Origin: a virus
Taxonomy: Duplodnaviria > Heunggongvirae > Uroviricota > Caudoviricetes
Length of the DNA stretch: 42,087 nucleotides
Virus record (IMG/VR): IMGVR_UViG_2565956712_000007
Direction: 5' to 3' (one strand)
The notes below the pieces were generated by a model that was not told the DNA's origin, did not search any database, and saw only the letters and a program-made list of their open reading frames with translations. A program made the translations under genes and the position numbers. Position 1 is the stretch's first letter; each line of letters begins with the position of its first letter. This document shows, one piece after another, positions 3,494 to 37,063 of the stretch.

Positions 3494-6469
3494 TTACATT
3501 GACATTAATATAAACATGGCTAATTCATCATAGCGAATTCCGTATCGTCCTCCTGCTTTTTTTACAAGAATCATATTTCCTGTTTTATATTGAGAATAAA
3601 TTTTCTCACCTGTATCAGGATCTGTGCTCTCTTCAGTTATCACCTCTTCATCCCATACGTCAGGCCATTCATCGTAACACCAAAAAGCATATTGCTCAGG
3701 ATTTAAACCATGCTTTCTAAGAATATCCCCTACGGTTTGAGCGCCAACGCCAAAATGATACCTGGACGACTCAATTCCTTTGTGATTAATTGAGTCATTA
3801 AATTTAAATTTATAGATGACTGACTTTATTTCAATAGCGGCATCACGCTCTGCATTAAGAATATCATATCTTGTTTTAAGAGTTTCATCTGATGTATTGA
3901 TTGACCCGGTTCCTGCATAGATAACAGAGCATCTGTTTGATGGCTGTCCAATAGCTTTAACATTATCATCAACAGGAGCTATTTTATTAGCATCTGCCAA
4001 CCACCAGTCTGTTCCATCAGCGTGACCGACTCTTACTCTTATCCCACTTCTAATATTTAAACTTCCGGTATTACTCTGTAAATTACAATCTCCTGACGTT
4101 GGTCCAAGCAGTACAGTTTTACCAACACCACATACTACTCTGGCATTTCCTTTTTGTGATACGAGTCTTGACTCACCTCCCGACTGCTCAGGAAGAGATT
4201 TATGGTCTATAAATGCATCGCGGGGGTTAAATACACCGTCTCCAGAATTATATCTTCCTCCTGTATAGTTGTTAAATACAGGACCCCAGTCAACGCCATT
4301 GCCTTCAGAGCACCCGACCATTCTAAGCACTCGTGTATTCCCTGCTGCATATGGTAATGAGCTTGTTGATTGCCGGGAAGCTATCATACGTGCTCCATAA
4401 CCAATAGCATTACCACCATTTATAGTTACATATGCTTGCTGGCTTTCGAAATATGTACTGTAAAAGTTCATATTTCCACAGTCATGCAGATGAATAAGAA
4501 CATCATCCCATCCCTGAATGGTTCCTGCATGTACCTGTACACCGCGAACTGGTTCCCCTGAAACCTCCATACACTCTGATGGCCGGCTGAATGGCTGAGA
4601 CAGGTATTGCGATGTGGCAAGCAGATGTGTGTGGTGATACAGGCTGGTAATGTAGCAATCGAAAAATTGCGTTCCCGCCATACCAAAGTTATCTATGTCA
4701 TTTCGCCGTATAGTAGAACCTACTGTTGCCTCAGAAGCGTTAGACACTCCAGTAAATACTAACTTATCACCGGATACGGATAATCCTGAATAAGTGAAAT
4801 TCCTGCCTCCAGATCTTAAAACCCCGGACGTTTCGAAGGTGTGGCTTGCTGACCATGGGATTTCGATGGTGCTGGACGTTACCGCTGTAATTCGGAATAC
4901 ATCATGGGCGCGGATCGAAACCCCCTTGAATCCCTGGAATCTACAGTGATAATAGTTTTCATCCTCGCCCTGAGCAGCCAGCGTGCCAGATACAGGAATG
5001 TTCGTTTTTAAAAGTGCCGTCTTGCGCCAGTATCCAACCACCTGCAAATTGCGGTATTCATTGCCAAAAGACGCACGTGACCAAATACCTACATCCCACT
5101 CATCGCCAAGACCGGTATTTGCAATGTCTTTATAACCATCCAGACCATTGAAATATGGAACAATACGAAAGTTCTCAAGGCGAACACATCCTGTCTCTGG
5201 CATCAATATTGCGGCAGAGAATGGTTTAAGCGTGGCTCTTGTAGCCCCATTAGCATCACCGTTAGTAAAATCCAATAAATCATATGATGACGCAGGTGCC
5301 GTTGTTGTATACGGGTCTTCGGAAGATGGATTAGAAACCACACCACCACTAACATCCATATTAGAAACACAATCTACAGTATATTTTTTATTTCCTACCC
5401 CGTACATCAGGAATGTGGTCCCTGTGGTAATATCAGGAGCAAATGTTGCAGTATATCCAGAGACCCATTTGCCCACACCAAGACCAATTATCCCACCACC
5501 AGAAACAGGTGTTAACGTATCCGTTATTACATACGCATTATCAGTACCATAAATAACCTTTCCTGTGTTAAGGGCAGCTTGCCACGCGGCCCAGTCTATT
5601 GACTGAGATAATGAGTCAACAAAAGGATATAAGGATTTTGCTTCAGAAATTGAAGAAAACCTCTCAGATAATGGATGATATTTCCCATCCCCAATTGCTC
5701 CGAATTGTTTTACATTTAAGAAAAGAGCATTGTTTTCATGCTGAGTTATAGTTACAGCCCCGGCAAATGGCTGCCTTACACCAATTAATGCATCACCTTT
5801 TCCTTCTCCTGCGCTAGATAATTGCAGAAGAACATCTGCGGCACTGCCAGAAGGCACAGGTACACCTATAGGTTTACCATTGACGATACCAATGACAGTT
5901 TCTTCCAGTAAATGAACTGGAGGAAGTGGTTCAATAAAATTATCTGGAACCCGTAATGTCCTGTTAATATTCACATTAACAATATTATCAACATAATTCT
6001 TTGTAGCTGCATCTTGAGGCTTGGAAGGATCGCGCAAATTGCGGATGTAATTATTCAAAGCATCGTAATAGTTTGCCACAAATGATGGTTTGCGCAGCGC
6101 CAGGCTAAACCAACTGCGGACTTGCTGTATCAGCATCGTCAGCTTATCTAACGCGTCTTCATGCACCTCAGCGAAAAACTTTCCCTGATTTCGCAGATCA
6201 GTTTCCTGCGTAACCGGTAGCTCTCGTGATATAGAAATCTGATAACCGTTAGCTAACGCCTTCGACAGAATTACATTACCGCCATTATATCCACCAGCCC
6301 CTGTGACAGTGTAATCAGTATCAAGAGCCAGCACAGCGATATTTTCGTCAAGGTCAACCACCTGTACTGCCAGATCAGATTCCTTGAAAACCCTAAAGGT
6401 ATACGGAAATGATGTCGTAACGCCGTTACCTGTGTATTCGTTGTGGTCAACTTCGGTTGAGACCGTCAT
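3494..6469 (-). CDS. Tailspike / tail fibre (991 aa): T7-type N-terminal attachment domain, central depolymerase-like body, C-terminal chaperone-like domain
   Basis: N-terminus GNGVTTSFPYTF...LDTDYTV pattern; C-terminal ...YKFKFND...GIRYDELAMFIL; GGAGA RBS. Confidence 0.8.
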   Translation of the reverse strand: MTVSTEVDHNEYTGNGVTTSFPYTFRVFKESDLAVQVVDLDENIAVLALDTDYTVTGAGGYNGGNVILSKALANGYQISISRELPVTQETDLRNQGKFFAEVHEDALDKLTMLIQQVRSWFSLALRKPSFVANYYDALNNYIRNLRDPSKPQDAATKNYVDNIVNVNINRTLRVPDNFIEPLPPVHLLEETVIGIVNGKPIGVPVPSGSAADVLLQLSSAGEGKGDALIGVRQPFAGAVTITQHENNALFLNVKQFGAIGDGKYHPLSERFSSISEAKSLYPFVDSLSQSIDWAAWQAALNTGKVIYGTDNAYVITDTLTPVSGGGIIGLGVGKWVSGYTATFAPDITTGTTFLMYGVGNKKYTVDCVSNMDVSGGVVSNPSSEDPYTTTAPASSYDLLDFTNGDANGATRATLKPFSAAILMPETGCVRLENFRIVPYFNGLDGYKDIANTGLGDEWDVGIWSRASFGNEYRNLQVVGYWRKTALLKTNIPVSGTLAAQGEDENYYHCRFQGFKGVSIRAHDVFRITAVTSSTIEIPWSASHTFETSGVLRSGGRNFTYSGLSVSGDKLVFTGVSNASEATVGSTIRRNDIDNFGMAGTQFFDCYITSLYHHTHLLATSQYLSQPFSRPSECMEVSGEPVRGVQVHAGTIQGWDDVLIHLHDCGNMNFYSTYFESQQAYVTINGGNAIGYGARMIASRQSTSSLPYAAGNTRVLRMVGCSEGNGVDWGPVFNNYTGGRYNSGDGVFNPRDAFIDHKSLPEQSGGESRLVSQKGNARVVCGVGKTVLLGPTSGDCNLQSNTGSLNIRSGIRVRVGHADGTDWWLADANKIAPVDDNVKAIGQPSNRCSVIYAGTGSINTSDETLKTRYDILNAERDAAIEIKSVIYKFKFNDSINHKGIESSRYHFGVGAQTVGDILRKHGLNPEQYAFWCYDEWPDVWDEEVITEESTDPDTGEKIYSQYKTGNMILVKKAGGRYGIRYDELAMFILMSM

Positions 6470-6572: not shown

Positions 6573-6589
6573 ATTACCTTTCAGGTAAT
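6573..6589. promoter_or_regulatory. Operator-like site ATTACC-TTTCA-GGTAAT
   Basis: Perfect 6-bp inverted half-sites, 5-bp spacer; member of a 14-copy family. Confidence 0.6.
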
Positions 6590-6643: not shown

Positions 6644-6664
6644 TTATTGCATGGAGAAGATAAG

Positions 6665-6922
6665 ATGCAGCAGTATCACTATCCACTGGAAGACGGATTT
6701 ACCGAAAGGATTCACACGCCGGGAGGCGTCAGGTCACTGGTGGAGGGATCGCACTTGATGAAATTACTCCGGGATCTCGATAAGGATGGATTTAATGTCG
6801 ATGGCCCACTTGCCGAACTGACTGCACTGATTAACTACGTCACCAGCTCACAGATGTCTATGCGGGATCTGCAAACACATCTCGACTATTGTGCCGAACA
6901 ATTACGAAAACAAACCCGGTAA
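6665..6922 (+). CDS. Small SOS-controlled protein (85 aa) carrying the antirepressor C-terminal module; candidate antirepressor
   Basis: GGAG RBS; C-terminal half aligns with the last 77 aa of both Ant proteins (LM.LL..L..DG..V.G..AELT...Y......RD.QTH..Y). Confidence 0.6.
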   Translation: MQQYHYPLEDGFTERIHTPGGVRSLVEGSHLMKLLRDLDKDGFNVDGPLAELTALINYVTSSQMSMRDLQTHLDYCAEQLRKQTR

Positions 6923-6929
6923 ATTTAAA

Positions 6930-6945
6930 GGCCGCAAGAGCGGCC
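6930..6945. terminator. Hairpin terminator GGCCGC-AAGA-GCGGCC between convergent genes
   Basis: Perfect 6-bp GC stem, 4-nt loop, T-rich flanks. Confidence 0.6.
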
Positions 6946-7673
6946 TATCGTTTCGCTTTGTGCTCATCCCAGCACGTTTTGCACCATGCCATTAAGCCGT
7001 CCGCATTTTGATTATTAGGGTAAAAGCTGGTTCGTTTTCTGCGGACATTACAAATTGGGCACCACTTCATATGGCGTGTATTCTTTGGGCCATCGAGACA
7101 CCTTGCACACCATTTAGTCAATCCATCTGGATTTTTTGACGATTTCCTGAATTTTTCATATGGAAGGTTTATTCTGCATCGCAAGCACTGCTTGCTACCA
7201 CTTGAAACTCTGTTAGCTGATTCTTCTTTTGGCGGCGATACAGAAGGTATTCTTGCTGGCTCTGATATTGCCTGAGGTGCTTTTTTAGATGACTGAGACG
7301 ATATGTCATCACCAGGGAATCTTCCATGATATGCCGGACGCGTTGACACTCCAGGTGGAATCTCAGCTGTAAACGGCTTTGGCTGAATCAGTTGCCTCTC
7401 TTTTGCTAACTCCTGCTGTTTATAATATGTCTGGATTACCGCACTATCATAAGCAGGAGGTGCGGAAATATTAGGCGCATTACCTCCAGTTTTTTGAAAC
7501 TGAGTAGAGGTGTGTTCTATCACCTGTGTACGATTAATCGTTATCTCCCCATCTTCGGTCTTTATCGTTTTGTTATGATTAACGACCGTACGATCAGAGA
7601 TCTTAGTCTTGTTCTGGTTGATAACGTAAATAATCACCGCAACCACACCAACAACTATCCAGAAAACTTCCAT
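6945..7673 (-). CDS. Membrane-anchored protein with duplicated Cys-rich (zinc-finger-like) C-terminal repeats; moron
   Basis: N-terminal TM helix; two C-x2-C ... W-C-x2-C repeats; operator-like site in its upstream region. Confidence 0.55.
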   Translation of the reverse strand: MEVFWIVVGVVAVIIYVINQNKTKISDRTVVNHNKTIKTEDGEITINRTQVIEHTSTQFQKTGGNAPNISAPPAYDSAVIQTYYKQQELAKERQLIQPKPFTAEIPPGVSTRPAYHGRFPGDDISSQSSKKAPQAISEPARIPSVSPPKEESANRVSSGSKQCLRCRINLPYEKFRKSSKNPDGLTKWCARCLDGPKNTRHMKWCPICNVRRKRTSFYPNNQNADGLMAWCKTCWDEHKAKR

Positions 7674-7692: not shown

Positions 7693-7709
7693 ATTACCTT
7701 AAAGGTAAT
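7693..7709. promoter_or_regulatory. Operator-like site ATTACC-TTAAA-GGTAAT
   Basis: Perfect inverted half-sites. Confidence 0.6.
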
Positions 7710-7785
7710 ATCTTGCTTTCAGGTGATCAAGCGTTAAACGCAATCAACCAAATACGGTTGATTTTAATGTTTCTTCGCGCTTATC

Positions 7786-7802
7786 ATTACCTTTACGGTA
7801 AA
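7786..7802. promoter_or_regulatory. Operator-like site ATTACC-TTTAC-GGTAAA
   Basis: One mismatch to consensus; next to TTTACA -35-like hexamer. Confidence 0.5.
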
Positions 7803-7894
7803 TTTACATCGCACTCCTCTTGTGCCATAGTAATCGGGCACTGGCAAAATCCAGTGCCGGGATTGGCGTCCCGGATTACTACAGAGGCACATAT

Positions 7895-7915
7895 GCCGCA
7901 TAAGCGGTTTTTTTT
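7895..7915 (+). terminator. Intrinsic terminator in the ant leader
   Basis: Short GC stem GCCGC-ATAA-GCGG followed by T8. Confidence 0.5.
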
Positions 7916-8068
7916 ATGTGTAAAGCGCACCTATTCTATGGTGGGCTGTGTGGGGGCACCGAAAGGTGCGCCGGGTCCTTTGTAGCCGGTTACGCCAACC
8001 CTGCACAGTTCACCACCAACCGATTGGCGTCGGTAGTGGTGATTAACCTAACTACAAAGGTGATCACT

Positions 8069-8755
8069 ATGACTGCTAACGTAACCCCATCTGTTTTTCA
8101 TTTTGAATCAGAAGCAACCATTCGAGCCATTGTTATTGATGGAAATCCTTGGTTTGTTGCCAAAGACGTTATTAAAGCTCTTCAACTGACAAACCCCACT
8201 ATGTCAATAAAATCTCTTGATGATGATGAAAGGGCTAAATTTAACTTAGGCCGTCAAGGCGAAACCAATATTATCAACGAGTCAGGCCTCTACACACTGA
8301 TCCTCCGCTGCCGCGATGCGGTGACACCAGGCACTATCCCATACCGCTTTCGTAAATGGGTTACAGGTGAGGTTCTTCCTCAGATCCGCCGCACCGGAAG
8401 TTACATTAAAAACTCGCTCCCGCAAGAAGAACGCATAAAGATGGTTGCCGACCAGGTAGCCAACGCCACGGCGTCAGCAGTAATGCAGGCAATGAAGGTA
8501 GAGAACAAAACCTACAGCGCCCCACTGAAGCCCGGCTACCGCAGCCTGATTCATTCGCCGTCTGGTGTTCTCGGCCTGACAGAGAACTCACTGCTGATGA
8601 ATCTGCTGAACCAGTTACAGGACGACGGGCACGACGTATCGGGCGCGGCGGCGGAGCTGACCACCATGTTCTGCTACATCGTCGGTGTGAGCAAATGCCT
8701 GCGTGATATCCAGACCCACGCGGAGTACATCAACGACAAGGCAGGGTTCTTCTGA
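8069..8755 (+). CDS. Antirepressor, Bro-N-type N-terminal domain (Ant1)
   Basis: N-terminus FHFESEATIRAIVIDGNPWFVAKDV; RBS AAGGTGA; C-terminal 77 aa near-identical to Ant2. Track start 7916 is likely too far upstream. Confidence 0.8.
   Translation: MTANVTPSVFHFESEATIRAIVIDGNPWFVAKDVIKALQLTNPTMSIKSLDDDERAKFNLGRQGETNIINESGLYTLILRCRDAVTPGTIPYRFRKWVTGEVLPQIRRTGSYIKNSLPQEERIKMVADQVANATASAVMQAMKVENKTYSAPLKPGYRSLIHSPSGVLGLTENSLLMNLLNQLQDDGHDVSGAAAELTTMFCYIVGVSKCLRDIQTHAEYINDKAGFF
8522..8755 (+). repeat. Inverted repeat arm A (234 bp, about 96% identical to arm B)
   Basis: Encodes C-terminal 77 aa of Ant1; about 10 mismatches to the reverse complement of 9618..9851. Confidence 0.85.
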
Positions 8756-8825
8756 CGGCGGCGGCGCAGGGACGTGCCTTTAAATAATTCTGTACAGATT
8801 GCAGACTGGGGGTGAATAGCGTACT

Positions 8826-8842
8826 ATTACCTTAAAGGTAAA
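8826..8842. promoter_or_regulatory. Operator-like site ATTACC-TTAAA-GGTAAA
   Basis: One mismatch; directly upstream of an AAGGAGG RBS. Confidence 0.55.
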
Positions 8843-8853
8843 GGAGGCGCGAT

Positions 8854-9021
8854 ATGACAGCGTTGAAAAATCGTACTCAGCACAATGAACAAGCCAAGCA
8901 ATGCTGGGATGTCATTGGAAAAGTTATGCTTGGCCGCGCAAGCAAAGAGCGCGACAAGGATATGGTTTACCAGACAGGAACATCTTTCAGCGACTTCAAG
9001 GCGGCATTTCGCTCCAAATAG
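8854..9021 (+). CDS. Small protein (55 aa), hypothetical; first gene of cassette
   Basis: AAGGAGG RBS 6 nt before ATG; not in ORF track (under 60 aa); opposite-strand track ORF 8827..9027 has no RBS. Confidence 0.5.
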   Translation: MTALKNRTQHNEQAKQCWDVIGKVMLGRASKERDKDMVYQTGTSFSDFKAAFRSK

Positions 9022-9041
9022 AAGCACATTAGGAGTTTGTC

Positions 9042-9482
9042 TTGAAGTTTAACATTAGAATATCTAATAGTTTTCTAAATGGGGAAAGCAACACCCCTTT
9101 CGCTGTAGACGGACCTTTCCTTACTGACGATGAAATAAAAATCATACAAAGGTTTTTAGAAGATGTTGCCAATGGAAGGGCGCTTGTTGGAAAAAACAAG
9201 CCATCGTGGGTTAATGATAACCATGATAAAATTCCCGGCTCAGACAATTATGAGCAAGAGAATTATTGGCATTATCATTGTGGGCCAACATGGTATCCAA
9301 ACACATTTAAGAATTATACCATTAACTTAAATTTCAACCCTGGCGGAATGCATTCTAATGAATGCATTCATTATGCAAAAAATGATAATGAAATTGTCGT
9401 TGTTGGATTTTCAAGAGAACACATACCTTTCCTTTCATCAGATGGAAACGACAATCCGCTTTTTTATGATGAAGAAGAATAG
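9042..9482 (+). CDS. AT-rich hypothetical protein (146 aa, TTG start); moron, function unknown
   Basis: AGGAG RBS 6 nt before TTG; visibly AT-rich versus flanks; strong terminator after stop. Confidence 0.5.
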   Translation: MKFNIRISNSFLNGESNTPFAVDGPFLTDDEIKIIQRFLEDVANGRALVGKNKPSWVNDNHDKIPGSDNYEQENYWHYHCGPTWYPNTFKNYTINLNFNPGGMHSNECIHYAKNDNEIVVVGFSREHIPFLSSDGNDNPLFYDEEE

Positions 9483-9502
9483 CCCGCGGCGCGGGCTTTT
9501 TT
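9482..9502 (+). terminator. Intrinsic terminator GCCCGC-GGC-GCGGGC + T6
   Basis: Perfect GC stem then TTTTTT. Confidence 0.8.
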
Positions 9503-9540
9503 GTGTCTGCGGATTCCCACCCAGGCGGCGGTGGCATTCG

Positions 9541-9566
9541 TTAAAAACAAGGCCGCGAAAGCGGCC
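9541..9566 (-). terminator. Intrinsic terminator downstream of ant2
   Basis: GGCCGC-GAAA-GCGGCC hairpin followed by a U-run on the minus strand. Confidence 0.7.
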
Positions 9567-9579: not shown

Positions 9580-9617
9580 GATAGTTCAGTTTTGCACATC
9601 CCTGTGCCGCCGTTCTG

Positions 9618-9851
9618 TCAGAAGAACCCTGCCTTGTCGTTGATGTACTCCGCGTGCGTCTGGATATCACGCAGGCATTTGCTCACACCAACGATGTAGC
9701 AGAACATGGTTGTCAGCTCCGCCGCCGCGCCCGATACATCATGCCCGTCTTCCTGTAACTGGTTCAGCAGATTCATCAGCAGTGAGTGCTCCGTCAGGCC
9801 GAGAACACCAGACGGAGAATGAATCAGGCTGCGGTAGCCGGGCTTCAGCGG
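9618..9851 (-). repeat. Inverted repeat arm B (234 bp)
   Basis: Encodes C-terminal 77 aa of Ant2; reverse complement matches 8522..8755. Confidence 0.85.
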
Positions 9852-10556
9852 ATAACCATAACATTTTGTCTGTGTTTTAATTGCCTCACGAAGCGCATCT
9901 AACATCTTGACTGCCACTTCATCATTCTCTGATGCAGATCCAGCAGGGAGATACTCCCCTTCAAGCGGAACCCGAGCAACAAGAGACAACGCTTCGGCGA
10001 ATTGATCTTCATCAATTTCTTTGTACGAACAGCCAAAATGAGATTTCAGTGACGACCACATGGTGATCATCGCCTTAGCCTGTTTTTCTTTTGGCAGAGA
10101 CTGACCGCGACTCATGACGAGTTGTTTAATGGCTTCCTGCTGTTCAGTGGTGATTTTACCCGGCAACGCCTTTTTAGCTTTGCGTGGGTTAACTACATGG
10201 CCTTTAGTCCAGTAATCGTAGAGCACATCGTCACACTCTTCCTGATACTGGATTACCTTGTCGCGGATTTCAGGGCGTACTTTGTTTGGACTGATGCTGT
10301 TCAACCAAGCTGCCAATTTTCGTAAAGCCATACAAATCATGGCTTGCACCCCACCGGCAGAAGGTATGGTGATTTCCACCATACCCTTCGAGAAGCGTTG
10401 AGAAATCTTCTTATGTTGAGATTTCCAGTCTAGCCCCATTCCCTCAACGATAGGTTTCATTGGGGTATACGGTTCACCGTTGTGATTGACAACATAAAGC
10501 TCTGCGCCGTGGAATGGCACGTTGATAGTAGATACCGCTGTTGCTATACTCGTCAT
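9618..10556 (-). CDS. Antirepressor, P22 Ant-type N-terminal domain (Ant2)
   Basis: N-terminus VPFHGAELYVVNHNGEPYTPMKPIVEGMGLDW; downstream of arc-like gene as in P22 immI. Confidence 0.8.
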   Translation of the reverse strand: MTSIATAVSTINVPFHGAELYVVNHNGEPYTPMKPIVEGMGLDWKSQHKKISQRFSKGMVEITIPSAGGVQAMICMALRKLAAWLNSISPNKVRPEIRDKVIQYQEECDDVLYDYWTKGHVVNPRKAKKALPGKITTEQQEAIKQLVMSRGQSLPKEKQAKAMITMWSSLKSHFGCSYKEIDEDQFAEALSLVARVPLEGEYLPAGSASENDEVAVKMLDALREAIKTQTKCYGYPLKPGYRSLIHSPSGVLGLTEHSLLMNLLNQLQEDGHDVSGAAAELTTMFCYIVGVSKCLRDIQTHAEYINDKAGFF

Positions 10557-10628
10557 GTCGTTAATTCCTATACGTAGTTTTACGATACTGAAGCCCTGAC
10601 GGTCTGGCCACCGTTGGGCTTCGCTGTT

Positions 10629-10825: not shown

Positions 10826-10916
10826 AAAACAATTGTCACACCGTGCGTCATTGATGTCAAGCACACGGTGAGGCATACTTCAATCATTGCAAGTAACTCA
10901 ATATTTGGTGAAGAAC

Positions 10917-11348
10917 ATGAGCAGAGAAGATCCACAACTAAGGATCAGACTTCCCGTTGAAGTAAAAGAAAAAATAGAAATTTCTGCAAAAGCCAATAAG
11001 CGATCAATGAACGCTGAAATAGTACAACGTCTTGACACCAGCTTTCTGAAAGATATTCATGAAGATGACGTAATTTCTGCTTATGAAGCAAAAATTATTG
11101 CAAACAATGCACGGCATGAAATATCAAATATTATTTTCAAAAGAACCTTTAATGAAATTAATAAGAAAATAACACTTGGACATACAAGTTTTTATATAAA
11201 CCTTAATGACCTTGAACTGGAATCACTTGCAGATAATGATTACCAGATCATCTTTGAAAAAACATTTAATAAGCTCAATGAACTAGGTTACATCATCTGT
11301 GAAAACTCATGGGATGCAGATGGTTTTGGAATTGAAATACCTGAATAG
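10917..11348 (+). CDS. Mnt-like RHH repressor fused to an AT-rich C-terminal extension
   Basis: N-terminus DPQLRIRLPVEVKEKIEISAKANKRSMNAEIVQRL matches P22 Mnt; about 60 aa longer than Mnt. Confidence 0.65.
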   Translation: MSREDPQLRIRLPVEVKEKIEISAKANKRSMNAEIVQRLDTSFLKDIHEDDVISAYEAKIIANNARHEISNIIFKRTFNEINKKITLGHTSFYINLNDLELESLADNDYQIIFEKTFNKLNELGYIICENSWDADGFGIEIPE

Positions 11349-11390
11349 GAAGAACAAAAGGCGTGTACATATTACACGTCTTTAATACAA

Positions 11391-12002
11391 TTGAAAAACG
11401 CCACATTACTGATGTATGTTACAACAAGGAGCGATATTTTGAAAACCATATCTATATTAAAGGTTGCATTAGGCGTCGCTATTATTTTGACTCTCTCAAT
11501 ATTGTTTTATTTTTACCACAAAAAAAATGCTATTGCTCTTGATGGTCACGCGGCAAACTCATTTTTCTCAGAGTACATAGTGCCGCTATCAGGAAGCGGT
11601 ATAACAAATAAATATACTGACTATGACATCAAATATGGAATTGATGATGGGGAGACTATTGTATTACATGTAATCATTAAAAACCTAATGACAGTAAATA
11701 AAAATACAGACTTCAACGATAAAAATACAATACATCACAACAACAGCAAAACATTAATTTCTTATAGTAGCAACATCTATACGGATAAATACCTAAAATA
11801 CATCTCAGAAGATACAATAAAAGCAACCAGCGAAAAGTTAAAAAACATATATTGTGCATCCGGCAGTTTTCACAAATTATCGCCGCAGGAGCGTTTATTC
11901 TACGAAGCAAGAAAACAACGTAAGTCAATAATATTACATTATTATGCTGATTCAGGGGAGTCACTCATATTTAATATTGGGGTTTCCCCTGAATCATGCT
12001 AA
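11391..12002 (+). CDS. AT-rich membrane-anchored hypothetical protein; candidate superinfection-exclusion moron
   Basis: N-terminal TM helix (ILKVALGVAIILTLSILFYFY); between ejection-protein gene and mnt-like gene; start uncertain. Confidence 0.45.
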   Translation: MKNATLLMYVTTRSDILKTISILKVALGVAIILTLSILFYFYHKKNAIALDGHAANSFFSEYIVPLSGSGITNKYTDYDIKYGIDDGETIVLHVIIKNLMTVNKNTDFNDKNTIHHNNSKTLISYSSNIYTDKYLKYISEDTIKATSEKLKNIYCASGSFHKLSPQERLFYEARKQRKSIILHYYADSGESLIFNIGVSPESC

Positions 12003-27047: not shown

Positions 27048-27064
27048 ATTACCTTTCAGGTAAC
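27048..27064. promoter_or_regulatory. Operator-like site ATTACC-TTTCA-GGTAAC
   Basis: Same half-sites and same spacer as the 6573 site. Confidence 0.55.
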
Positions 27065-33532: not shown

Positions 33533-33877
33533 TCAGAACTCTTCGATGTTCCAGCCACCACCTGCTTTCTTTGGTTTAACCGTTACCCCGATGATTCGGA
33601 ACGGATACTGATCTGCGGCGACTTTGGTTTTCACCCTGGCGTCGTCGGTCCAGAAACCTTTCACTTCGTGCAGTTCCATCTCTCCGGTGGCGAGCATCAC
33701 AGCGAAATCTGGCGTATAGAACGTGTTGTCAGCTAACCGCAGCTTGATACCCTCGAATCGATACCATGCGATTTCCCCTGCACGTTTACGCAGCTCAAGG
33801 TGCTGGCAATACGCAGATTCTGTTTTGTTCATCTGGCCTGTTTTGAGCCGACCAAGAGCCTGTATCTGTTTTCTCAT
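33533..33877 (-). CDS. DUF1064-like small phage protein (114 aa)
   Basis: Pattern YTPDFAV...HEVKG.W resembles small nuclease-fold phage proteins. Confidence 0.5.
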   Translation of the reverse strand: MRKQIQALGRLKTGQMNKTESAYCQHLELRKRAGEIAWYRFEGIKLRLADNTFYTPDFAVMLATGEMELHEVKGFWTDDARVKTKVAADQYPFRIIGVTVKPKKAGGGWNIEEF

Positions 33878-33879
33878 GA

Positions 33880-33896
33880 TTTACCCCTTAGGTAAT
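33880..33896. promoter_or_regulatory. Operator-like site TTTACC-CCTTA-GGTAAT
   Basis: Between P-like gene stop and next gene start. Confidence 0.5.
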
Positions 33897-33941: not shown

Positions 33942-33958
33942 ATTACCCATCAGGTAAT
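33942..33958. promoter_or_regulatory. Operator-like site ATTACC-CATCA-GGTAAT
   Basis: Perfect half-sites. Confidence 0.6.
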
Positions 33959-36343: not shown

Positions 36344-36928
36344 ATGAAAAGTATCCAGGACGTCCGCAGGCAAAATCTCAACGACTTGATCGACCGTGAA
36401 TTCAATGGTGTTCAGACGCGGATGGCTGAAAAACTTGGAACTCAGGCAAATCTGGTAAACCGCTGGGCTCTTGGTAAGAAGGTTATCGGCGATCAGGTTG
36501 CGCGAAAAATTGAAGCTGCCGCCAATAAACCCCGTAACTGGCTTGATATCGATCGCTCGCTTTCTCAGGAAGGTTTTCAGCCTGTCGGCCCAAGCGACAT
36601 TGGCCAGCTGGCGGCTCACAACCTGGAACGCTGGATGAGCGAAAGCCGCGACCTTTCAACACAGGGAAAACTTCACCGCGCATCCGGCGTCGCCCAGGTG
36701 ACAATCAGCCGCCTGTTAAACAATGAGGTCAGCGTTTCCATTTCCACCCTGGAGAATGTTGCATCCGCATTCGGGCGTCACGGCTATGAATTACTGATTC
36801 ACCCGCACGACCCTGCGACCATCAACTATGATCGCTCGCGCTACGCATTGTTACCCGAAACCGAGAAAGCAAAGATCGAAAGTTACATTGAATTTGTCAT
36901 CAACCAGAACGAAAAAAACAAACAATAA
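36344..36928 (+). CDS. Prophage repressor, cI-position, HTH (XRE-type) without recognisable S24 autocleavage domain
   Basis: HTH motif TRMAEKLGTQANLVNRWALGKK plus second HTH-like segment; flanked by OR-like and OL-like operator clusters. Confidence 0.7.
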   Translation: MKSIQDVRRQNLNDLIDREFNGVQTRMAEKLGTQANLVNRWALGKKVIGDQVARKIEAAANKPRNWLDIDRSLSQEGFQPVGPSDIGQLAAHNLERWMSESRDLSTQGKLHRASGVAQVTISRLLNNEVSVSISTLENVASAFGRHGYELLIHPHDPATINYDRSRYALLPETEKAKIESYIEFVINQNEKNKQ

Positions 36929-36984: not shown

Positions 36985-37063
36985 ATTACCTAACGGGTAA
37001 TTTTTTTAACTCATATCTATTGACATCAAACCATATACGCATAATTATTACCTCAACGGTAAC
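36985..37063. promoter_or_regulatory. OL/pL-like region: two 17-bp operators (36985-37001, 37047-37063) flanking a TTGACA -35 hexamer (37020-37025)
   Basis: ATTACC-TAACG-GGTAAT and ATTACC-TCAAC-GGTAAC; promoter points into the early-left operon. Confidence 0.65.

Follow-up and report, generated by a model that had tools for sequence, protein, structure and literature searches.

The closest described relatives of the locus reported here are prophage and phage systems built on the RelE/ParE fold. In the paaR2-paaA2-parE2 module of the cryptic prophage CP-933P of Escherichia coli O157:H7, transcription is governed by a prophage regulator that resembles lambda CI (PMC8630535), and bacteriophage T4 encodes RegB, an early endoribonuclease that has a RelE/YoeB-like fold with an extra helix and two catalytic histidines (PMC3014915). 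Our subject is a two-gene cassette at positions 8826-9502 of a 42,087-nucleotide stretch of viral DNA (Caudoviricetes; IMG/VR record IMGVR_UViG_2565956712_000007), the whole of which we call the window and which is a phiV10/epsilon15-like prophage (Uetakevirus) of E. coli. The first open reading frame (ORF), ORF55, lies at 8854-9021 on the + strand (ATG to TAG, with AGGAGG at 8842-8847, 6 nt before the ATG); the second, ORF146, lies at 9042-9482 on the same strand (TTG to TAG, with TAGGAG at 9030-9035, 6 nt before the TTG) and starts 20 nt past the stop of ORF55. We think it rather likely that the two genes form a toxin-antitoxin (TA)-like pair of the RelE superfamily, the transcription of which is set by the prophage repressor and not by the antitoxin.

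A first-pass annotation, made from the sequence alone, had described ORF55 with a strong ribosome-binding site (RBS), the TTG-start ORF146 20 nt further on, a palindrome and a strong terminator, and all of these are present with the coordinates given here. Both ORFs are genuine genes. They are annotated in RefSeq as hypothetical proteins (WP_000125783.1 and WP_000671199.1), and they match the PHROG families phrog_8607 (ORF55; E 3.6e-39) and phrog_5954 (ORF146; E 5.8e-73), the latter without an assigned function. Measured against homologues of 75% identity, ORF146 has a dN/dS of 0.05-0.06 and ORF55 one of 0.13-0.16, which indicates purifying selection on both. The visibly lower GC that had been ascribed to ORF146 is also there: GC is 0.36-0.39 across 9000-9499 (300-nt windows) against 0.55-0.57 in both flanks, and it is the ORF146 part that is low, ORF55 itself being not especially AT-rich. 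The unit ends in an intrinsic terminator at 9481-9505 (+), found by the terminator scan, with the stem-loop AGCCCGCGGCGCGGGCT and a T-run; its stem (9481-9497) has 7 bp, six of them G-C, and is followed by TTTTTTGTG. The terminator overlaps the stop codon of ORF146 and is kept in phage phiv142-3. An Rfam search found no RNA families inside the cassette. In phiv142-3 (locus L001, 5760-5980) and many E. coli prophages, about 192 extra bp stand past this terminator and code for a signal-peptide protein of about 53 amino acids (MKKAFAALFVLLSLVASTQAFAGRCQHD..., "transmembrane anchored protein"), of which the window keeps a 3' remnant alone (9508-9546). Matches in two pieces had given the impression that ORF146 is disrupted in phiv142-3 and many E. 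coli genomes; the alignment rejects this, the gene being intact and the extra 192 bp or so lying after the terminator.

Structure prediction and remote-homology searches were run for both proteins, and for ORF146 they point to the RelE/ParE fold. The AlphaFold2 model, built with 26 homologues, is confident (pLDDT 92.4, pTM 0.87) and shows the compact alpha/beta fold of the RelE/ParE superfamily, in which N-terminal helices pack on an antiparallel sheet of three to five strands, enlarged by approximately 55 residues of insertions. When this model was compared with known structures by Foldseek, no E-value was significant, and the top-ranked proteins stood at target-normalised TM scores of 0.5-0.6; a fold search in BFVD gave no meaningful match. 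From the model we infer that ORF146 is homologous to the RelE superfamily. The sequence family to which it belongs is classified by no database, and it comprises 32 clusters in 5.8 billion proteins and 116 representatives (E ≤ 1e-3) among 1.84 billion. Across 96 homologues, with identity down to approximately 22%, His77, His79 and His127 are invariant, and Asn52, Lys53, Ser55, Tyr78 and Tyr111 are at least 90% conserved. The conserved residues fall in the segments GKNKPSW, YWHYHCGP and ECIHY...IVVVGFSREH, on predicted strands or just past the last strand. Taken with the model, they suggest that ORF146 is an RNase-type member of the superfamily, a putative mRNA endoribonuclease toxin. In five loci the RelE-like frame is broken or truncated while the partner module is intact (L010, L065 and L067 from Canicola haemoglobinophilus, L021 from a Neisseria metagenome-assembled genome, and L097), which is what one would see if harm comes from the larger protein.

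Outside the RelE-like core, the last residues of ORF146 (135-146; 9444-9479) contain a conserved N-P-L-F followed by an acidic tail, DEEE; the model is of low confidence here, and the segment could be a docking or degradation signal. Some longer family members (P0114, P0120, P0095, P0116) were considered as natural fusions of partner and toxin, and hhalign with the partner profile gave no support to this. The lone PDB profile match of ORF146, a cytochrome c555 construct, is a spurious helix match.

ORF55 looks entirely different. Its AlphaFold model consists of two bare helices (residues 2-30 and 45-54) joined by a loop, with no globular fold (pLDDT 77.8, pTM 0.39), and the protein has no match in Pfam, NCBIfam or PADLOC. 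What makes it informative is its association with the RelE-like gene. In approximately 40 diverse loci, found with alignment A1 because A2 was too diverse, a co-oriented ORF lies immediately upstream of the RelE-like gene, the gap being -4 to +31 nt. These partners are 55-211 amino acids long, and their conservation is confined to the C-terminal 45 residues or so, which follow the pattern [W/Y]-x7-L-x-R, a variable loop, an alternating hydrophobic strand, and [S/T]-h-[D/E]-[D/E]-h-x2-A. A hidden Markov model (HMM) of this module finds it immediately ahead of the RelE-like gene in 93 of the 97 loci; in three of the four misses, which are Aeromonas-type loci, the motif can be recognized by eye in an overlapping ORF of 69-71 amino acids. 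The 121-amino acid partner in the lambdoid locus L055 is matched by phrog_8607 over its C-terminus. By sequence, then, ORF55 is the minimal form of a helix-loop-helix partner module that co-evolves with the RelE-like protein, as expected of a toxin-binding peptide, and we regard it as the putative neutralising (antitoxin-like), toxin-binding partner of ORF146. A conserved co-oriented gene pair across hosts and contexts is what one finds in type II TA systems. The DNA-binding, autoregulating antitoxin of such systems is not found here: no DNA-binding domain was detected in ORF55, nor any Pfam domain in the longer partners, and the sole operator of the cassette is that of the phage repressor. 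Without such a domain, the pair is presumably not under its own control, in which it would differ from classic type II systems. The longest partners, 160-211 amino acids, are those of the Pasteurellaceae (L006-L019, L064-L100) and of Kingella and Neisseria (L020, L021), and they have a long helical middle region (phrog_18778).

What regulates the cassette can be read from the DNA upstream of ORF55. A putative sigma-70 promoter at 8799-8827 (+) consists of TTGCAG (8799-8804), a 17-nt spacer and TACTAT (8822-8827), and is proposed on the grounds of its conservation and geometry. Abutting its -10 hexamer and covering the expected transcription start is the palindrome TTACCTTAAAGGTAA (8827-8841). 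The window has 14 matches to TTACCTNNNAGGTAA (TTACC-N5-GGTAA, at most two mismatches) against 1.05 expected. They cluster around the gene of the main prophage repressor (194 amino acids; 36344-36928, +), which is divergent from a cro-like gene: two operators (36226 and 36274) and one degenerate copy lie between these genes, and the operators at 36986 and 37048 flank the TTGACA promoter (37021-37047) of the opposite early operon. Single operators also precede the Bro-N antirepressor gene ant1, a 242-amino acid gene, a 91-amino acid gene and the cassette. At the cassette, ant1 and early promoters the operator starts on the last base of the -10 hexamer; the ant1 promoter, which the promoter scan lists (TTGATT-18-TATCAT, 7758-7787), has the same -10/operator geometry as that of the cassette. 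In phiv142-3, 15 operator sites are found against 0.6 expected, one of them (6153-6167) just before Orf9, the counterpart of ORF55, and the window repressor is 100% identical to Orf43 of that phage. The protein is identical in phiV10 and ZX5 as well, and its overexpression blocks lytic transcription (PMC9782041). The site at 8827-8841 is therefore best described as a putative operator of the main prophage repressor, with the same motif as at OR and OL, and not as the lysogen-type regulatory site of the first-pass annotation. It appears that the main repressor controls the cassette in trans, and stable lysogens are predicted to keep the cassette repressed. Further operators stand far from the immunity region, at 27049-27063 (intergenic) and at 33881-33895 and 33943-33957 (upstream of a 114-amino acid gene, 33533-33877); with operators so scattered, the repressor seems to control many dispersed promoters.

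The cassette had also been credited with an operator of its own, and this does not hold. An element of approximately 90 nt that contains the promoter and operator follows antirepressor genes and is conserved before different cargo, in Phi05_2388 B and twice in E. coli ETEC1749. In Phi05_2388 B, where other cargo takes the place of the cassette, the element is conserved up to the left half-site of the operator and precedes unrelated ORFs of 124 and 63 amino acids. In ETEC1749 it stands behind both convergent antirepressor genes: one copy precedes a 59-amino acid ORF and a YafO-family toxin (YafO_toxin, PF13957, 26.3 bits; the RefSeq name agrees), and the other precedes ORF55-ORF146, which there are on the ant2 side rather than the ant1 side. 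Judged by these alignments, the promoter and operator belong to a slot of the phage backbone and not to the cassette. Different cargo behind the same element indicates that the slot hosts interchangeable modules of a small gene followed by a larger one, one of them a recognized toxin family. In this ETEC1749 module (L105, 3104-3803), the 59-amino acid ORF is unannotated and overlaps the start of the YafO-family gene; it may be the antitoxin of that toxin. A flip-flop reading of ETEC1749 was rejected, as the element is duplicated and the YafO module is on the other side, which amounts to recombinational shuffling of cargo.

The distribution of the cassette is that of an accessory element. The cassette region is 97.5% identical to phage phiv142-3 over 96% coverage, and HEMP4 matches too, while the match to phiV10 is confined to the right flank and the cassette itself is missing from that phage. 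Among 5,426 complete E. coli genomes the flanks are found in 522 and the cassette (at least 80% coverage) in 77 (approximately 1.4%). Beyond E. coli, the prophages with the pair come from other Enterobacterales, Pasteurellaceae (Haemophilus, Actinobacillus), Neisseriaceae (Neisseria/Kingella) and Aeromonas. The pair occurs in at least three phage contexts: Uetakevirus prophages have it between antirepressor genes, a lambdoid prophage (L055) has it in the nin region, where it adjoins NinG and Q, and Haemophilus myovirus-type prophages have it in the tail region, between tape-measure and baseplate genes. Its behaviour is that of a mobile module complete in itself. The description of the cassette as a moron-like insert stands, given its absence from phiV10 and its replacement by other cargo elsewhere; it has the patchy occurrence among close relatives, the deviant GC and the terminator of a moron, its promoter and operator, however, belonging to the backbone slot. 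Likewise, the suggestion of a TA module has gained from the fold of ORF146, the near-invariant linkage of the partner and the YafO-family toxin in the equivalent slot.

Published data on phiv142-3, a prophage of avian pathogenic E. coli (APEC), can be read anew in this light. The "orf10" of that phage (QGF19616.1; PMC7724020) is a 52-amino acid ORF that lies out of frame within the ORF146 homologue, and its frame has stop codons in diverged homologues. The GenBank annotation of phiv142-3 missed ORF146 and called out-of-frame fragments instead. The lambda-Red primers used to construct the Δorf10 mutant define a deleted stretch equivalent to 9172-9330 of the window (PMC7724020). This deletion takes out residues 44-97 or so of ORF146, including GKNKPSW and WHYHCG, and leaves ORF55 intact. 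The mutant grows normally in LB, but in 50% serum its survival is approximately 60%, its kps transcripts are down about 2-fold, and its loads in chicken blood and heart are lower (PMC7724020). On sequence grounds, the phenotype of the APEC phiv142-3 Δorf10 mutant traces to the loss of the RelE-like core of ORF146, and "orf10" is an annotation artefact; the complementation construct is too loosely defined in that paper to tell which frame complemented. In RNA-seq of serum-exposed cells the top-induced prophage genes were orf41 (log2 4.56), orf10 (4.12) and orf40 (3.68), while the upstream antirepressor gene ant rose only by log2 1.31 and the early-left genes by 1.3-1.8 (PMC7724020). orf40 and orf41 are early-operon genes next to cro. 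A 17-fold rise of orf10 RNA against a 2.5-fold rise of ant argues for a separate cassette promoter, and the pattern as a whole fits a release of promoters that the repressor controls, one of them belonging to the cassette.

We can now sketch how such a pair might work. ORF146 would be an mRNA endoribonuclease, probably ribosome-associated, and would act through the strand of the invariant His77 and His79, through His127, and through the Lys51-x-Lys53 strand. ORF55 would bind and neutralise it, by analogy with the C-terminal parts of RelB, YefM or PaaA2 and their toxins. The strong AGGAGG/ATG start of ORF55 as against the weaker TAGGAG/TTG start of ORF146 leads one to expect that the partner is made in excess. 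The main repressor on the operator would keep the cassette low in a stable lysogen; once repression is lifted, by induction via the antirepressors or in a fresh infection, the bicistronic mRNA would be made alongside the early genes, and any free ORF146 would cleave mRNA. Our guess at the purpose is that host translation is quickly reprogrammed or shut off at derepression, with side effects that resemble addiction; we have also considered lytic commitment, addiction-like stabilisation and leaky effects on host expression.

Several observations count against a repressor-controlled RelE-superfamily pair. The cassette promoter is weak, with 7 of 12 consensus positions, which is why the promoter scan does not list it, and there is no terminator between ant1 and this promoter, so that read-through may contribute to transcription of the cassette. 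The lower serum resistance and the kps drop in LB-grown Δorf10 cells imply some expression in lysogen cultures. For ORF146, Pfam has no match to the protein or to any of the 96 homologues, searches of NCBIfam, PDB sequences and PDB profiles found none, and hhalign comparisons with YoeB and YafQ were not significant; the putative catalytic residues are placed by motif order and secondary structure. The earlier statement that no family can be recognized is thus correct for the sequence, in Pfam, NCBIfam, PDB and hhalign alike, and not for the fold, which is that of RelE/ParE. Finally, the partners of 160-211 amino acids carry a hydrophobic N-terminal segment, which is odd for an antitoxin, and their last 45 residues or so alone resemble ORF55.

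A bolder version of the same scheme, which we put forward tentatively as possible but doubtful, gives the prophage repressor the role of "third component" for a family of interchangeable cassettes of RNase toxins (this RelE-like pair or YafO, for instance) in the antirepressor slot, silent until repression collapses. If this were true, derepression would be irreversible or lethal for the host, and the slot would serve commitment, host shut-off or abortive induction; occasional leaky firing would explain the capsule-expression and serum-resistance phenotypes; and ORF55 would represent a new antitoxin family and ORF146 a new histidine-based branch of the ribosome-dependent RNases.

Could ORF146 instead be a dedicated RNase of the lytic cycle, like T4 RegB, which cuts host or early phage mRNAs, with ORF55 as its timer or inhibitor? 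Such an enzyme would speed up the takeover of the host or the early-to-late switch after derepression. The repressor-controlled slot and the co-induction with early genes are what this would predict, and RegB, an early enzyme with a RelE/YoeB-like fold and two catalytic histidines (PMC3014915), is similar in size to ORF146, the H-x-H strand of which is invariant. But timing is not conserved, other prophages carrying the pair in late (tail) or nin regions, and a strictly linked neutraliser is a hallmark of TA systems, whereas RegB has none known. On balance we judge a RegB-like role unlikely.

The first-pass annotation had proposed exclusion or defence, and a moron that is expressed in the lysogen and protects it (abortive infection, superinfection exclusion and anti-phage defence are examples; an invading phage that perturbs the cell would free the toxin) would indeed be compatible with a TA-like pair of RelE fold. 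It would also suit the moron features and patchy spread of the cassette (77 of the 5,426 complete E. coli genomes), its location in other prophages at typical moron positions, and the presence of some transcript and phenotype in lysogen cultures. However, the only regulatory site is the main repressor operator over -10/+1, which predicts repression just when the lysogen needs defence, and neither ORF55 nor ORF146 has a match among the 5,027 models of PADLOC-DB v2 (E up to 1). We find no support for a defence or exclusion role, and consider it decidedly improbable.

The published serum, kps and chicken-load phenotypes of Δorf10, which is an internal deletion of ORF146, have a further possible explanation: a non-toxic lysogenic-conversion factor, in which a RelE-fold protein and an adaptor partner tune host genes (e.g., those of the K1 capsule) and raise serum resistance. 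The long variable N-terminal domains of the Pasteurellaceae partners are in keeping with an adaptor. Against it, an RNase-toxin fold with an invariant His/Lys/Tyr set on its sheet points to catalysis, the modest effects may be indirect, via an RNase or altered prophage induction, and the complementation construct of PMC7724020 does not reveal the complementing frame; we hold this explanation to be very improbable. That the two genes are no functional unit and that their ORFs arose by chance in the AT-rich stretch separating the antirepressor genes, as the shortness of ORF55 and the omission of ORF146 from the phiv142-3 GenBank annotation might suggest, is refuted for practical purposes by the dN/dS of 0.05-0.16, the 116 family representatives, the confident AlphaFold model and the conserved pairing.

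If a repressor-controlled RelE-superfamily pair is the correct reading, it offers a fold and a testable mechanism for two "hypothetical" families, phrog_5954 and phrog_8607. The published virulence result, re-read, suggests that the effect on serum resistance and capsule expression runs through an RNase. The Uetakevirus slot with its exchanged toxin modules, moreover, makes a tidy system in which to ask why toxins should be coupled to the lysis-lysogeny switch in temperate phages.

The surroundings of the cassette have features of their own. It lies within an inverted repeat of 270 nt (90%), the left arm of which (8487-8756, +) encodes the C-terminal domain of the Bro-N antirepressor ant1 (phrog_450) and the right arm (9617-9886, -) the same domain in the convergent P22_AR_N antirepressor ant2. 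The left arm is thereby the part of the phage backbone that precedes the cargo slot. We considered whether the repeat could act as an invertible switch and found no evidence for it; TUM9803, which is matched by a synthetic inverted junction, has the cassette between two Bro-N antirepressor genes. A third copy of the C-terminal domain (approximately 85 amino acids; phrog_450) forms a stand-alone 91-amino acid ORF at 6647-6922 (+), with an operator at 6574. The 242-amino acid protein encoded at 6945-7673 (-) has a hydrophobic segment at its N-terminus and, at its C-terminus, two repeats that resemble zinc ribbons (Stc1, endonuclease VII or Lar-like matches), and its operator, 7694-7708, is immediately upstream of the RBS. 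Rfam searches upstream of the Bro-N antirepressor gene identify the isrK Hfq-binding RNA (7838-7914, +; 76.8 bits), the C4 antisense RNA (7934-8020, +; 79.5 bits) and, slightly below the gathering score, the c4 a1b1 targets (7825-7877, +; 45.1 bits); the 5' end of the P22_AR_N antirepressor gene is faced by a sar antisense RNA of the P22 type (10558-10625, +; 45.2 bits). With both C4/isrK and sar RNAs, the prophage combines the immI controls of the P1/P7 type and of the P22 type. A second two-gene unit, more AT-rich than the cassette (GC approximately 0.30), is found at 10887-12002 (+). Its first protein (153 amino acids) has an N-terminal Arc/ribbon-helix-helix domain (PF03869, E 1.2e-14; phrog_1388), and the other (203 amino acids; phrog_8033) has a weak match to the TIR-like ThsB in PADLOC (E 0.0058); this unit may be another TA or defence candidate.

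How, then, does the pair compare with known systems? It shares with RelE, YoeB, YafQ and HigB and their antitoxins RelB, YefM, DinJ and HigA a small first gene, a larger toxin-like second gene and tight spacing, and apparently, with RelE-type toxins in general, the conservation of basic and histidine residues on the sheet and after the last strand. The K-x-K strand and the C-terminal histidine of ORF146 may correspond to K52/K54 of RelE, H83 of YoeB and H87 of YafQ. RelE-type toxins are approximately 85-100 amino acids long, whereas ORF146, at 146, has long insertions between the strands and the NPLF-acidic tail, and no sequence relationship to them is detectable. ORF55 differs from the antitoxins of these systems in having no DNA-binding domain and belonging to no known antitoxin family, and regulation is not by the antitoxin.

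Closer in its predicted regulation is paaR2-paaA2-parE2, in which a toxin of the RelE/ParE superfamily and a small antitoxin without a DNA-binding domain are tied into an immunity network by a CI-like prophage regulator. There, the regulator gene opens the operon; here 27 kb separate the repressor gene from the pair, with which it is not co-transcribed, and the repressor appears also to control the phage early promoters and the antirepressor genes. ParE2 is moreover ParE-type, whereas ORF146, with its conserved histidines, looks RNase-type, and ORF55 has no similarity to a known family. RegB of T4 resembles ORF146 in being phage-encoded, in its early-type promoter and in a RelE/YoeB-like fold with extra elements. 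The YafO cargo of ETEC1749 has the same element of approximately 90 nt directly behind an antirepressor gene and the same order of a small (59 amino acids) and a larger ORF, but its sequences are unrelated to the cassette (hhalign probability 0.2%). The immI regions of P22 (ant, sar, arc, mnt) and of P1/P7 (c4, icd, ant) provide the wider setting: the cassette lies between antirepressor genes with a C4/isrK-type leader and a Sar RNA, and Arc-family genes adjoin the region. The classical immI regions of P22 and P1/P7 contain no such pair, and here the antirepressor promoters and the cassette carry the operator of the main repressor instead of Mnt or Arc operators. We place the pair in a sequence family that is new, and in its regulation it is a variant of a module type that is well known.

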